Below, piece after piece: positions 11,267 through 63,302 of a stretch of 64,000 bases of DNA. Both the position numbers and the translations under genes were made by a program. The notes under the pieces were generated by a model. That model was not told the origin of the DNA. It was given only the letters and a program-made list of their open reading frames with translations, and did not search any database. Each line of letters begins with the position of its first letter. Position 1 is the stretch's first letter. Source of the stretch: an uncultured Acidobacteriota bacterium (GTDB taxonomy: Bacteria > Acidobacteriota > Blastocatellia > Pyrinomonadales > Pyrinomonadaceae); contig CAVRHB010000007.1 of NCBI GenBank assembly GCA_963720905.1, positions 608,698-672,697 on the forward strand. Direction: 5' to 3'.

Positions 11267-12283
11267 ATGAACGAGCGTTACAGCCGACAGATTTTATTTC
11301 AAGAGATCGGAAAAGAAGGCCAGGAACGGCTGGGAAATTCGCGAGTGCTTTTGGTTGGCTGCGGAGCTCTTGGTGCGGCACATACGGAGGCGTTGGCTCG
11401 AGCCGGTGTCGGATCTCTGCGAATAGTTGATCGGGATTTTGTAGAAACGACCAACCTTCAGCGGCAGACGCTTTTTGACGAATCGGACGCAACGCATCGC
11501 GTACCGAAAGCGGCAGCGGCAAAGCGTCGTATTTCAGAAATAAACTCCGCGATAGAAGTTGAACCGGTCATTGCCGATGTGAATAATTCGAACATCGAAT
11601 CACTGATCGAAGGCTGCGATCTTGTCATCGACGGAACCGATAATTTCCAGATCCGTTATCTCGTCAACGACGCGTGTGTGAAGCACAAAAAAACATGGAT
11701 CTACGGCGCGGCCGTTTCCAGTTACGGTTCGACAATGACAATAATTCCCGGCGAAACGCCTTGTTTGCGATGCATTTTCGAAGAAATGCCGCCAGCCGGT
11801 TCGGCTCCGACATGCGATACGGCCGGCGTGATCATGCCGATCATCACCTCGATCTCGGCTGTTCAAGTCACCGAAGCATTAAAACTTCTCACAGGCAACC
11901 AAAAGGATCTGCATCGTTCGCTAATGCAGATAGATGTTTGGAACAACATTTCGACAAAGATAAAACTCGGCAAACCCGAACCGGATTGCATTACTTGCGG
12001 TAAGCATATTTTTGAGTTTCTCGATTCCGAAACACCCGAATTTTCGGCTGTGCTGTGTGGAAGAAACGCGGTCCAGATCGCACCACCGACAACCGAGATA
12101 GACCTCGATCAATTGGCCGACCGGATCAAATTTATTACATCTGTAAATCAAAACGAATACCTACTTCGTTTTAGCACCGATGGTTTGGAAGTAACAGTTT
12201 TCCGCGACGGCCGTGCGATAATTCGCGGAACTGACGATACCACAGTTGCTCGATCCGTGTATGCCAAATATATCGGCACTTAG
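11267..12283 (+). CDS. ThiF/MoeB/HesA-family E1-like adenylyltransferase with a C-terminal extension.
   Basis: Motifs MNERYSRQILFQEIGKEGQERLGNSRVLLVGCGALGA...IVDRDFVETTNLQRQ...DGTDNF and the CxxC pairs CLRC and CITC are present. The tail reads VTVFRDGRAIIRGT. Confidence 0.8.
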   Translation: MNERYSRQILFQEIGKEGQERLGNSRVLLVGCGALGAAHTEALARAGVGSLRIVDRDFVETTNLQRQTLFDESDATHRVPKAAAAKRRISEINSAIEVEPVIADVNNSNIESLIEGCDLVIDGTDNFQIRYLVNDACVKHKKTWIYGAAVSSYGSTMTIIPGETPCLRCIFEEMPPAGSAPTCDTAGVIMPIITSISAVQVTEALKLLTGNQKDLHRSLMQIDVWNNISTKIKLGKPEPDCITCGKHIFEFLDSETPEFSAVLCGRNAVQIAPPTTEIDLDQLADRIKFITSVNQNEYLLRFSTDGLEVTVFRDGRAIIRGTDDTTVARSVYAKYIGT

Positions 12284-46100: not shown

Positions 46101-46373
46101 TGTCTATTTGTTGCCGGATGAGCTCGATCAGTTGGATTTGCAACCGAATCAATTTCGCGCCAATATTAGCATAGGTCTCCGCAATCGCTGAGTTTTTTGT
46201 CAAAGTCAGAACCGCCTGTGTCAGCGGAGTCGGTCGCACTTTGGACGACATAAAATTTCGACGTTGTTGCACAAATAAAACTATTTACTATACACGCAAG
46301 TTATGTTATATTTTGCTTGGGTCGATGTTCGCACCGACCAAGGAATAGGCGGGTTTTTGAAAATTTAGCGCGA

Positions 46374-46405
46374 GTGGGACACTGGGACAGCGGGACAGTG
46401 GGACA
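46374..46405 (+). repeat. Tandem octamer repeat, 4 x NNGGGACA.
   Basis: The units GTGGGACA CTGGGACA GCGGGACA GTGGGACA are contiguous. The array is intergenic, 119 nt upstream of ispH. Confidence 0.9.
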
Positions 46406-59433: not shown

Positions 59434-59970
59434 CTAAGCCTTTGGTTTTTCTATCTCCGATCTTAGATCAGAAGGTAAACCTTGCCAGAGGTCCGGATGG
59501 GATTCGACGAGGCGTGCTATATCAGCAAGATCTTTAATGCGTTTACTTTGCCGTCGTTTCGGGTCACTCCAGGCTCTAATTTTTCCCGTCATTGTATCCT
59601 CAAGGGACGCAACACGCATCAAAATTCCATGAACATCCGCGGCTATACCTCGCGAAGCGAAATCACGATACATATCTTCGGTTGTGAGCTGTATTGCTAC
59701 TTTGGACTTTCCCTTGAAATTGATCGACCACTCAAATGTTTCCGGAACAAAGCCAACCTCTTCCAGAGCCGACACGGCTTTTTCGATCGAATCTGCCGCG
59801 ACAACAAAATCTACATCTTGTGTAACCATTTGCTCCGCCGCCCAATGGTTTACCGCAACACCGCCGATCGCACACCACAAAATATCGGCCCGCTCCAGCG
59901 CATTTATAAAACGCATAACATCATCGGTACCGCCGTGTGTTTGCCAGTCGTAGAATTGTTTCTCTGTCAT
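59434..59970 (-). CDS. Nucleotidyltransferase-fold protein (pol-beta superfamily), inserted between moaD and moaE.
   Basis: 178 aa. Contains WCAIGGVAVNHW...QDVDFVV (a G[GS]-x-DxD-like NTase core) and a C-terminal RIKDLADIARLV helix. Confidence 0.55.
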   Translation of the reverse strand: MTEKQFYDWQTHGGTDDVMRFINALERADILWCAIGGVAVNHWAAEQMVTQDVDFVVAADSIEKAVSALEEVGFVPETFEWSINFKGKSKVAIQLTTEDMYRDFASRGIAADVHGILMRVASLEDTMTGKIRAWSDPKRRQSKRIKDLADIARLVESHPDLWQGLPSDLRSEIEKPKA

Positions 59971-61072: not shown

Positions 61073-61159
61073 TTGTTTAATTTTCACGCAAACCGCGCTA
61101 TAAAGCAACGGAAGAGCAAGCGATAGGAAACCGGCTTCTTGGATCTGTTCGCATTTAGT

Positions 61160-61215
61160 GTTTGTTCAAGGTTTGTCCATGGCTTGTCCAAAGCTTGTTC
61201 AGGGTCTGTTCAGAG
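61160..61215 (+). repeat. Five direct repeats at an exact 11-bp period (iteron-like or winged-helix-regulator-like array).
   Basis: TGTYCA cores start at 61163, 61174, 61185, 61196 and 61207. The units are gtTTGTTCAag, gtTTGTCCAtg, gcTTGTCCAaa, gcTTGTTCAgg and gtCTGTTCAga. Confidence 0.85.
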
Positions 61216-61297
61216 GTTTTGTGAACGCGTAAGTTATTGGTAACACTGAGTATAGGAGTTTGTCTTCGATCTTTTTGGTTTGTTTTAAAATAAAGTG

Positions 61298-61325
61298 TTG
61301 ACATTTCTTTCATTTCATCTATAAT
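61298..61325 (+). promoter_or_regulatory. Consensus sigma-70-type promoter upstream of the RepA-like ATPase gene.
   Basis: TTGACA (61298-61303), a 16-nt spacer, then TATAAT (61320-61325). The ATG is at 61356. Confidence 0.6.
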
Positions 61326-61355
61326 ACATTGTGTCATACAACGTATGGCTGAATT

Positions 61356-62678
61356 ATGTCAACGAATGTTACAGAAGTCAAGAAAATAGATGCGGCCGTT
61401 TGGCGGGCGAAAGATCGTATTGCGGAGCTAAAGGCAGCGAAACCGGCGGACAGGCTGTTCGATGAATTTTGGCGCGAAGGCGAGCTTGCGTTGTTTTTCG
61501 GCCCGACCGGAAAAGGCAAAAGCGTTTTGGCCGTACAGATCGCAGATGCTCTCGCACGCGGAACGGCGATGCACGGATTTGCGATGCCAAAGCGTCGTAA
61601 AAAGGTTCTGTATGTCGATCTGGCACATTCGGACGCTCAATTTCTGGAGCGATACAGAAAGTATAAATTTGCTCACGAACTTTTTCGCGGCCAGCCGGAC
61701 GAAGACGTCGATCTTTTCGAATGGATCAAAGCGGTTGTCGAAACGAATGATATTGAGGTCGTCATCGTGGACGACCTTGCGGCGGTAAAGCAGACGAACG
61801 AAGGCGTCCGCGAAACTCTTTTGCTTATGCGGAATTTAAAACGATTGTGCCGCAGCCGGGGACTTTCTGTGCTTGCTATCTCCGATGCATCCGAGCCAAA
61901 GAACAAACGCGAAAGCGAGAAGGATCTGAATACATCGAAGGTTCTGTGCCGTGTCGCCGATAGTGTTTTTTCGATCGGAAGCGCGTCCTATCAGGGCGAC
62001 CGGCGGCGGATCGCTCAGACGAAATCACGCAGCGGCAAACTTTTCTGGGATCTGGATAATTCTCCGAAAGGCGATGTTAAAAGATTCGATTCGGGCCTGC
62101 TCGGGTTCGAATTCGACGAACGTTTTGCGGCAAAGCCGGACAAGGAAAAATGCCGTTTGATCAATGATATTCATTGGCGGCACGAAGACGGACAAACATT
62201 TCGGGCGATCGCAAAAGAGCTCGGCATGCCGACATCGACTTTGTTCTGTCTCTCCAAAAAATGGACGCCGGCAATGGGCGGCAAACCAGAACCGCCAAAG
62301 ATAACCTATGAACCGCCGTTCTACGACGACCCCGAACCGCAGTATTCCGAAGAGTCCAGTATCTGGCTTGACATCGAGCGCGAACAAGCCGAACGCCGGG
62401 CCAACGGCGGCGAAGATGTCGTTGCGGTCGAGGAGGCCGAGCCTGATACACGCCCGCCAAAGCCGAGTTCGATCTATGACCTCGAGCTGGATTTCGACAG
62501 TTACGCCGGCAAGATATACGTCGAATCGCGCGACGAATTTTCCCGCAAACCGACCGTCTGGTACAAACCCGCAGATTCGGGCCCGATAACCAAATGCACC
62601 CGCAAACACGGCTACATAAACGTCGAAGTCTTCAAAACCGATCCAATAACAGAGACATTCGCCAGAGCCGGCCCGTGA
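61356..62678 (+). CDS. RepA/AAA_25-like RecA-fold ATPase with an internal HTH and a C-terminal region of unknown function.
   Basis: Walker A is LALFFGPTGKGKSVLAVQIADALARG. Contains VLYVDLAHSD. Walker B is VVIVDDLAAV. Contains SVLAISDA. The HTH-like stretch is DGQTFRAIAKELGMPTSTLFCLSKKW. A Pro/Glu-rich linker is present. Confidence 0.65.
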   Translation: MSTNVTEVKKIDAAVWRAKDRIAELKAAKPADRLFDEFWREGELALFFGPTGKGKSVLAVQIADALARGTAMHGFAMPKRRKKVLYVDLAHSDAQFLERYRKYKFAHELFRGQPDEDVDLFEWIKAVVETNDIEVVIVDDLAAVKQTNEGVRETLLLMRNLKRLCRSRGLSVLAISDASEPKNKRESEKDLNTSKVLCRVADSVFSIGSASYQGDRRRIAQTKSRSGKLFWDLDNSPKGDVKRFDSGLLGFEFDERFAAKPDKEKCRLINDIHWRHEDGQTFRAIAKELGMPTSTLFCLSKKWTPAMGGKPEPPKITYEPPFYDDPEPQYSEESSIWLDIEREQAERRANGGEDVVAVEEAEPDTRPPKPSSIYDLELDFDSYAGKIYVESRDEFSRKPTVWYKPADSGPITKCTRKHGYINVEVFKTDPITETFARAGP

Positions 62679-62780
62679 TATTATAGGGTTTTCGTTTGAA
62701 AATTTGCCCGACAACCTGCCTTGGCGGTGGATCAGGTTCAGGCGTGCAAAAAAATATCGGATATGGAATAAAGGCGAGTT

Positions 62781-63302
62781 ATGTTATTTGAAAGTTTTCA
62801 AGATCTACTGCGAATTTTAGTCAGCGCGATCATCTCTTATGCCGTTATTATTGTGTGGCTGCGCGTAGCCGGTAAACGCACTCTCTCCAAATGGAACGCA
62901 TTTGATTATATAGTGACCATTGCTCTCGGCTCCATTCTAGCCTCAATGATACTGTCAAAAGACGTAAAAATGGCCGATGGCATTTTGGCATTCTCTCTGC
63001 TGATGCTTTTTCAATTCAGTATCACATTTCTGAGCTCACGATTTTCAGTGTTCGATAAGATCATAAAAGCCGAACCAAAGTTTCTGTATTGTGACAACCG
63101 TTTTCTGGAACAAAATATGAAAGCCGAACGGGTGCCAAAGCCAGAGATCTTGGCAGCGATCCGTTCCGCAGGCATCTCCGCTTTGGACGATGTTAGAGCC
63201 GTTATTTTGGAAACCGATGGCAGTTTTAGCGTAGTAAAAAAATCAGACGATAGATCGGATTCTGCACTTTCGGATGTCCAAGGCAGGGAAAACTTTAATT
63301 GA
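62781..63302 (+). CDS. DUF421 (YetF-like) membrane protein.
   Basis: Contains LLRILVSAIISYAVIIVWLRVAGKRTLSKWNAFDYIVTIALGSILASMIL and a soluble C-terminal domain. Confidence 0.7.
   Translation: MLFESFQDLLRILVSAIISYAVIIVWLRVAGKRTLSKWNAFDYIVTIALGSILASMILSKDVKMADGILAFSLLMLFQFSITFLSSRFSVFDKIIKAEPKFLYCDNRFLEQNMKAERVPKPEILAAIRSAGISALDDVRAVILETDGSFSVVKKSDDRSDSALSDVQGRENFN

Follow-up and report, generated by a model that had tools for sequence, protein, structure and literature searches.

The 64,000-nucleotide stretch of DNA analyzed here (called the window below; part of contig CAVRHB010000007.1 of an uncultured acidobacterium of the Pyrinomonadaceae) carries on its + strand, at 61356..62678, a gene for a 440-amino-acid ATPase with a helix-turn-helix (HTH) and a C-terminal domain (CTD), as defined by the open reading frame (ORF) call, Pfam, an alignment of homologs and an AlphaFold2 (AF2) model. 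This gene and the array of short repeats, AT-rich spacer, promoter and leader upstream of it make up the cassette that is the subject of this report. The surrounding genes encode ThiG, a ThiS-family protein, an AbiEii-like nucleotidyltransferase (NTase), MoaE, a DUF421/YetF protein and a PAS protein; an earlier reading of the same letters (the original prediction) had correctly named thiG and the DUF421 gene as the neighbors. The thiG gene and the ATPase gene diverge from a single 283-bp intergenic region (61073-61355), and G+C content is ordinary around the locus except for an AT-rich dip there.

The 440-amino-acid protein is a true AAA_25 ATPase whose modeled fold resembles those of DnaB, T7 gp4 and KaiC and includes an HTH. 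Pfam AAA_25 (PF13481) matches residues 25-175 with 56.5 bits (E 3.7e-15) against a gathering threshold of 27; DnaB_C (25.5 bits, residues 125-227) falls just under its 27-bit cut-off, and KaiC (PF06745; 17.8 bits, cut-off 26.6) and RecA are likewise sub-threshold. NCBIfam, PHROGs and PADLOC gave generic P-loop or helicase-type similarity only (in PADLOC a weak match of 27.8 bits to mad8 over the P-loop region and one of 13 bits to TRIP13, with no partner genes). No Rep-family match was found in Pfam or NCBIfam, the winged-helix Rep types (Rep_3, TrfA) included, and when PDB sequences were searched with a profile, Rad51/RecA-type chains and SpoIIID were the only ones to reach E ≤ 0.1, RSF1010 RepA not being matched. 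The Walker A motif GPTGKGKS (residues 49-56; 61500..61523, + strand) and the Walker B motif VVIVDD (residues 134-139; 61755..61772, + strand) are both present, as originally described. In an alignment of 25 homologs G49, G54 and K55 of the former, D139 of the latter and Q221 are invariant, R223, A201, D202 and S203 are nearly so, and a DnaB-type H4-like motif (ADSVF) and an arginine-finger-like motif (QTKSR) are nearly invariant as well; because of this conservation the NTPase site and the DnaB-like H4/arginine-finger region are evidently under selection.

The AF2 model, which was built on the 25 homologs and has a mean predicted local distance difference test score (pLDDT) of 76, consists of a RecA-type core, a three-helix HTH, a disordered acidic linker and a compact CTD. 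Foldseek matched the core to DnaB, Twinkle, T7 gp4, KaiC, RadA and Rad51 (E 1e-12 to 1e-10), and the best matches were DnaB, Twinkle and T7 gp4 (E 8e-13 to 1e-11), that is, folds of the SF4 type; the RecA-fold, AAA_25-type assignment of the original prediction thus agrees with both Pfam and the model. JGI names several homologs as KaiC/GvpD/RadA-type proteins, and these have the RecA-like fold in common with the window protein (the Foldseek matches just given include KaiC and RadA), but the window protein differs from them in its single ATPase domain, its HTH and its cis repeat array. The helices of the predicted HTH span residues 263-277, 282-289 and 293-301 (62142..62258, + strand; pLDDT ~79-89), and weak Pfam matches to HTH_SB, HTH_38 and HTH_23 at residues 270-303 agree with the HTH-like segment that had been noticed before; its presumed recognition helix is PTSTLFCLSKKW. 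The earlier description of the last ~150 amino acids as unrecognized stands insofar as Pfam recognizes no domain past residue 303, but the region resolves into two parts as follows: an acidic, mostly disordered linker (residues 305-370; 62268..62465, + strand) that varies in length and sequence across the alignment and has pLDDT <50 at residues 313-330 and 351-368, and a conserved CTD (residues 375-437; 62478..62666, + strand) modeled as five beta strands and one helix with pLDDT ~90. The CTD matched no PDB fold (best E 0.65), and its profile found only 301 clusters among 1.84 billion representatives, near the C-terminal end of the protein in nearly all of the matches listed; it is specific to this family.

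The promoter (61298..61325, + strand) is of sigma-70 type, with TTGACA at -35 (61298-61303) and TATAAT at -10 (61320-61325) separated by a 16-nt spacer; it matches the consensus at 12 of 12 positions, as had been claimed, and its extended pattern occurs once in the window, where 0.02 matches would be expected. Farther upstream are six direct heptamer cores of the TGTYCA type (61146..61212, + strand), which can be read directly from the sequence as TGTTCG at 61146, TGTTCA at 61163, TGTCCA at 61174 and 61185, and TGTTCA at 61196 and 61207. The last five (61163-61207) have an exact 11-bp period, Tandem Repeats Finder reports 5.4 copies of period 11 at 61160-61219, and 61146-61212 is the sole cluster of such cores in the window. 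A single inverted copy, GTGAACG (61221..61227, + strand), stands 9 bp past the last direct copy and is followed by an AT-rich spacer (61228..61297, + strand) with a G+C content of 0.39, compared with ~0.50 around it. The spacer contains the box TAAGTTATTG (61230-61239, + strand), which was recognized by eye in the family alignment as a conserved pattern YAA-N4-TTG, and a degenerate promoter-proximal heptamer TTGTCTTC (61260-61267, + strand), and it ends in an A/T tract directly 5' of the -35 hexamer. The leader and gene start (61323..61382, + strand) are conserved across the family: AATAC-att-GTGTC (61323-61335; family consensus GATAC-N3-GTATC) overlaps the -10 hexamer and the predicted transcript start, the arms of an inverted repeat lie at 61338-61347 (ACAACGTATG) and 61360-61372 (CAACGAATGTTAC, + strand), and a GTCAAG box conserved in the family occupies 61377-61382 (+ strand). 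The very strong promoter is thereby enclosed by repeat sites on both sides. The heptamer array lies some 90-150 bp ahead of the start of thiG, whose promoter it could affect, and a comparison of 40000-64000 with Rfam at the gathering score gave no match, hence no thiamine pyrophosphate (TPP) riboswitch in the thiG-ATPase gene spacer.

A homolog search found 170 proteins at E ≤ 0.001, and all that carry a taxon name are from Pyrinomonadaceae or other Acidobacteria; they are annotated as PF13481 too, and the members in Blastocatellia are from Pyrinomonadaceae and Chloracidobacterium. The closest homolog (locus L001) is 68% identical and has the same synteny, between thiG and a gene for a PAS/sigma-54 activator. 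The genes beside the ATPase gene are 72-91% identical between L001 and the window, and the block of DNA similarity stops exactly at the stop codon; the shared synteny together with these identities indicates that the ATPase gene was vertically inherited there and evolves faster than its neighbors. In L001 the heptamer cores and their phase are kept and the spacers between them are changed. Only this closest ortholog adjoins thiG, so the gene is not a core gene of known function fixed beside thiG; the remaining members are on 0.1-1 Mb contigs, in chromosomal surroundings that are unrelated. Several assemblies have two copies, and one 19.7-kb contig has two copies 9 kb apart. The long form was not found in plasmid, phage or viral-contig collections, and none of seven small metagenome contigs that carry it has a terminal overlap or is circular.

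Several differences between the window and L001 surround the cassette. The AbiEii-like NTase gene (59437-59970, between moaE and the ThiS-family gene) and the DUF421/YetF gene (62781-63302, downstream of the ATPase gene) are absent from L001, where the stretch from the ThiS-family gene to thiG contains PLDc and Exo_endo_phos genes instead. The cassette is thus a stable block in a region whose content otherwise changes by gene gain and loss. A genomic island was considered and rejected, as there is no tRNA gene near the ATPase locus, G+C is normal outside the intergenic dip and the flanks are syntenic with those of the relative. The flanking words TGGATCTGTTC and TGGATCAGGTTC pointed out in the original prediction both exist, but as element ends (att sites or target duplications) they were rejected: an equal match arises in 26% of shuffles, and they are not kept in the syntenic ortholog. 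None of the sequencing runs checked for coverage or transcript starts contained more than 12% of the sampled words.

Is the upstream organization a property of the window copy or of the family? The 320 bp that precede each copy from Acidobacteria show the same order: direct heptamers, inverted copy, YAA-N4-TTG box, AT-rich spacer (often with one further heptamer), A/T tract, promoter and leader, and metagenome loci newly added to the set have the same cassette. There are two to six direct heptamers per cassette, mostly with an 11-bp period. A strict test, which demands exact matches, at least three phased direct repeats and an inverted copy, was passed by 17 of 40 loci and by 18 of 1426 random control segments; the sole reason that the window and its ortholog fail it is the alternation of TGTTCA with TGTCCA among their cores. 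At the 17 passing loci the inverted copy is mostly 15-18 bp (range 15-30) past the start of the last direct core. Within ±10 kb the locus-specific core forms no cluster other than the upstream array at 21 of 21 loci, and the A/T tract reads AATTTTCAAAAAMC in ten loci and, across all loci, occurs only at this position of the cassette. The family promoter is TTGACA-N16/17-TAYGAT, a sequence of the type TTGAC-N16-17-TAYGAT being visible by eye at the same place in about 27 of 40 rows. The leader is near-identical even where the proteins of the copies share no more than 40-50% identity, and its GTCAAG box is preserved in different reading frames. In the leader inverted repeat (ACAACGT...ACGTTGT) 74% of cells are paired, compared with 23-47% in slid controls, but covariation in the hand-drawn stem is not above that of shuffles and RNAalifold predicts no structure; a structured RNA is therefore not supported, and the repeat could act at either the RNA or the DNA level. 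The phased array of the original prediction is thus retained in both ortholog and family; that it makes up, with promoter and leader, a cassette common to the whole family had not been noticed there. The heptamers themselves vary from copy to copy (TGTTCA, TGTCCGG, TGTCCAC, TGTCCCAC, GTTCCGG, GTTTCA and TGTATCA), and to judge from these comparisons the cassette has apparently descended vertically in the chromosomes of Blastocatellia, where it has given rise to paralogs that differ in heptamer specificity.

The protein might act solely in transcription, as an ATP-dependent factor, or in the local organization of nucleoprotein, repressing its own promoter and modulating adjacent genes, here thiG. 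The place of the array ahead of the divergent thiG start, with no TPP riboswitch between, is consistent with this, as is a second, gene-less array on the - strand (46352..46405), which consists of four TGTCCC cores with an 8-bp period followed directly by AATTTTCAAAAACC, the A/T box that was seen elsewhere only within cassettes of this family, and is upstream of an unrelated small gene whose 150-amino-acid product has no Pfam match. No promoter, family gene or family coding remnant was found near this second array, which could represent either what is left of a paralogous cassette or a site targeted in trans. Operators and centromeres such as parC/ParR typically have 11-bp phased arrays around promoters. 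The parC/ParR system of plasmid R1 is comparable to the present array in its short direct repeats in 11-bp helical phase, which adjoin the promoter that drives the presumed binder's gene, with autoregulation likely. ParR, however, is a small ribbon-helix-helix protein with an actin-like partner, ParM, while the presumed binder here is a 440-amino-acid RecA-fold ATPase with an HTH, and neither a ribbon-helix-helix or ParM-type domain in the protein or its neighbors nor a partition partner gene was found. A purely regulatory protein seems improbable to us on three grounds: the neighbors differ at nearly every locus and therefore offer no common regulated target, the 21 loci have no further array within ±10 kb, and a simple repressor would not need fully conserved helicase-type motifs.

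The original prediction had called the gene an orphan, with no primase or integrase beside it, and this holds for the window copy and for the whole acidobacterial clade (38 loci). None of the neighbors typical of Tn4555/NBU-type elements (integrase, HTH_17, primase-like gene, relaxase) is present beside the window copy or recurrent in the Pfam tally of the 129 genes that flank these loci, in which the sole recurrent family is Y1_Tnp (seven genes; IS200-like and probably associated with repetitive extragenic palindromic (REP) sequences). The Y1_Tnp gene is always just downstream of the ATPase gene, on the same strand in L004 (9498-9941), L005 (9540-9983) and L024 (~11435-12028) and on the opposite strand in L008 (11462-11911), L035 and L037. 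The cassette could accordingly be imagined as a single-gene mobile element, or part of one, that is moved in trans by Y1 transposases (IS200/IS605 or REP-associated tyrosine transposase (RAYT) types) with the leader hairpin as its end or nick site; the constant position of the Y1 genes, the conserved leader inverted repeat and the REP-like hairpins around Y1 genes would fit. We nevertheless regard this as very unlikely, since tblastn with the Y1_Tnp protein found nothing in the window, no IS200/IS605 or RAYT gene being present there, the paralogs are 35-50% identical and so have not transposed recently, the ortholog is in the same synteny, and conserved ends or target duplications are lacking, the flanking words being at chance level. 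The comparison of L004 with L005 also argues against it: it points to gene conversion, or to a separate and younger insertion, as the source of the Y1 segment. An 808-bp stretch over the CTD and the Y1 gene is 87% identical between these two loci and 703 bp of the 5' half of the ATPase gene are 69% identical, and REP-like hairpins surround the Y1 gene in both. At ~9039-9059 of L004 a perfect REP-like palindrome, CTCCTCCTTACGAAGGAGGAG, is inserted in frame within the variable ATPase linker, where it encodes the peptide PPYEGGV; its core (a 16-nt match) occurs once or twice each in L007, L009, L021, L027 and L035, and the linkers of homologs P0029 and P0056 carry peptides similar to PPYEGGV.

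A scan of genome collections showed that the nearest relatives outside this clade, proteins of ~350 amino acids that are mostly from Bacteroidota and are 31-35% identical over residues 34-296, do adjoin integrase, excisionase and primase-like genes, which bears out the earlier remark that such proteins normally sit in integrative elements. These proteins of integrative mobilizable elements form the sister clade of the acidobacterial family. Their neighborhood by Pfam reads MnmE, HTH_17, Phage_integrase, unknown, HTH_17, AAA_25, Zn_ribbon_16+DUF6371. Such short forms are also present in Pyrinomonadaceae, and they alone were found in plasmids and phages; none was found in viral contigs. The same gene set, together with a relaxase gene and cfxA, is carried by CP103138.1, a 10-kb circular Bacteroides fragilis record whose gene content agrees with the gene list of Tn4555 (PMC13183296), and MTnBf8 has a similar pair, orf7 (P-loop) and orf8 (toprim primase) (PMC13597742). 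That the relative is TnpC of Tn4555 was rejected, because TnpC and the AAA family ATPase are separate genes in the Tn4555 list (PMC13183296). In a maximum-likelihood tree one strongly supported branch (99/93) divides the long from the short forms, and when the tree is rooted at its midpoint, two long forms and the three short forms from Acidobacteria are basal to the Bacteroidota short forms.

The short forms have arrays as well. At least two direct and at least two inverted heptamers were found within 100 bp after the stop codon in 27 of 43 short-form loci, compared with 8 of 1679 random segments; the period is mostly ~9 bp, and typical arrays are three TGTTCAC followed by three GTGAACA, or three TGTAACA followed by three TGTTACA. 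In CP103138.1 (L087) the array, three TGTCCC and three GGGACA at 1008-1068, is inside the annotated 3' end of the ATPase gene, 34 bp before the DUF6371 gene, and is absent from the feature table. The spacing of the gene-less TGTCCC array of the window (46352-46405) resembles that of this TGTCCC array. The element ATPases (CP103138.1, MTnBf8 orf7) thus resemble the window protein in having an AAA_25 core, an HTH on its C-terminal side and an adjoining array of TGTnnn heptamers, and the cores of both clades are of this same type. They differ in being ~350 amino acids long without linker and CTD, in being flanked by an integrase, an excisionase-type HTH_17 protein, a Zn-ribbon/DUF6371 primase-like gene and a relaxase (see also PMC13183296 and PMC13597742), and in having a symmetric array (three direct and three inverted copies, ~9 bp apart) located at the gene's 3' end or beyond it, where the array of the orphan 440-amino-acid form is upstream, has an 11-bp period and is asymmetric (five to six direct copies and one inverted). 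The pairing of gene and array is therefore the same in two phyla despite relocation of the array. In the short clade of Pyrinomonadaceae, L042 (9035-10888) encodes a 617-amino-acid fusion of a CHC2 zinc ribbon (DnaG-type), AAA_25 and HTH_7, a primase-helicase-like architecture within the same family, and this gene is followed by three TGTAAC and four TGTTAC.

The chromosomal orphan copies might also serve against mobile elements as an exclusion or incompatibility device, binding the arrays of incoming elements and blocking their replication or excision. Several paralogs of different specificity per genome, the more rapid evolution of the ATPase gene relative to its neighbors (68% versus 72-91% identity), cores (TGTTCA, TGTCCC) identical to those of element-borne arrays, the short element-type forms in Pyrinomonadaceae and the weak PADLOC match to mad8 could all be read in this way. 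The mad8 match is, however, to a generic P-loop, no defense-island neighbors or effector domain were recognized, and each copy keeps its own cis array, which would be superfluous for a pure decoy, and we hold such a function to be decidedly unlikely.

Comparison of the presumed recognition helices with the arrays gave the following correspondence: helix LGAVNKY goes with heptamer class TGTTCAC, SHMKVSRI with TGTTACA, TGTVSRY with TGCTCCA and KGTVSKY with TGCCCAC. The window protein and the long forms of L001 and L026 have TST in common and TGTTC cores, and the recently duplicated paralogs L022 and L024 differ in helix and in core alike. Such a pattern is what direct read-out of the heptamers by the HTH would be expected to give.

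The reading of these data that we consider most likely, and on balance probable, is that the cassette is self-contained and that its product, a protein of initiator-helicase type, binds the cis repeats of its own cassette and regulates itself. The predicted HTH probably reads the TGTYCA-type heptamers (five to six phased direct copies and one inverted, 61146-61227), and the ATPase would oligomerize on them through the HTH. The array-bound protein could then loop to the promoter-proximal half-site and the boxes of the operator-like leader, the looped complex would repress its own very strong promoter, and ATP might be used to distort or open the adjacent AT-rich spacer in the fashion of an initiator-helicase. 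A second conserved reader of the leader must also take part, perhaps the CTD or a host factor. Of the three alternatives put forward, with no choice among them, in the original prediction (a domesticated initiator remnant, a minimal mobile or defense module, or a regulator) the evidence favors an initiator-type repeat-binding module and leaves the other two with lesser probabilities.

Several observations weigh against this interpretation. The leader and the GATAC-N3-GTATC box are common to paralogs with different heptamers, so a second reader is needed and the regulatory model is incomplete as it stands. The 11-bp geometry places sites on one face of the helix and the element arrays are symmetric with a 9-bp period, so that the mode of assembly may differ; by simple arithmetic, a 9-bp spacing rotates successive sites by about -51 degrees, which would fit a ring or spiral around the DNA, and an 11-bp spacing keeps them on one face. 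The match between helix and heptamer is confounded by phylogeny and physical linkage, the locus lacks a primase partner, a stable multi-copy chromosomal origin would be unusual and the GC skew is blank there, and the midpoint-rooted tree is compatible with either polarity (domestication, or recruitment into elements).

If the protein is of the initiator-helicase type, does the cassette fire as an origin? Rep-ori layouts are known from RSF1010 RepA/oriV, staphylococcal pathogenicity islands (SaPI) and phage-inducible chromosomal islands, and from the pentamer origins of SV40 (large T) and papillomaviruses (E1), and these modules likewise combine a RecA-fold or hexameric helicase-type ATPase with short cis repeats that flank an AT-rich stretch and vary in specificity. 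The cassette could by this analogy be an active minimal replicon or secondary origin, at which a self-loading initiator helicase fires from the AT-rich spacer, with one origin per paralog and local amplification or an additional chromosomal origin as the result. Its repeats, AT-rich region and proximal repeat beside a helicase-like gene have the Rep-ori layout, the helicase motifs are intact, and the genes of the relatives, carried by elements that have a circular form, adjoin a primase-like gene. Unlike these modules, however, the cassette has no primase (none is adjacent at any of the 38 loci) or separate initiator and is chromosomal, vertically inherited and multi-copy, and the protein differs from RSF1010 RepA in that the PDB profile search found no sequence match between them. 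The absence of the long form from small circular contigs and from plasmid, phage and viral-contig records, the age, divergence and stable positions of the paralogs and a GC skew that is uninformative at the locus also speak against an active replicon, which we think possible but not likely. The candidate outputs of the cassette rank, from the least to the most improbable, as origin firing, pure regulation (including that of thiG), exclusion of elements with matching arrays and mobility with Y1 transposases. The stronger proposal that each cassette is a working origin-initiator pair, so that Blastocatellia would have several extra sites of replication start or local amplification, each with its own paralogous initiator helicase and heptamer code, is doubtful; if it were true, bacteria would have here an equivalent of the multi-origin chromosomes of archaea, with captured origins beside their own initiator genes.

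The AAA_25 superfamily and the general logic of an initiator-like protein with cis repeats are already known. In the literature searched no paper joins AAA_25 with iterons, and nothing relevant was found on Acidobacteria, RepA and iterons; the chromosomal cassette, the CTD, the conserved promoter and leader, and the family-wide heptamer arrays, that of the Tn4555-like record included, appear to be undescribed there. The comparison brings out a conserved protein-site pair, present in two phyla, in which TGTnnn heptamer arrays accompany a helicase-like AAA_25-HTH ATPase. For the Tn4555-like, cfxA-carrying mobilizable transposon of Bacteroides the array is a candidate cis site for an uncharacterized ATPase-primase module, and the variation of the helix with heptamer class could serve as a readable code of DNA recognition. 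In soil Acidobacteria the same protein is found as a chromosomal cassette that stands alone, occurs in several copies, seems to be inherited vertically and has diversified in site specificity; this would be either a domesticated or the ancestral form of the module.

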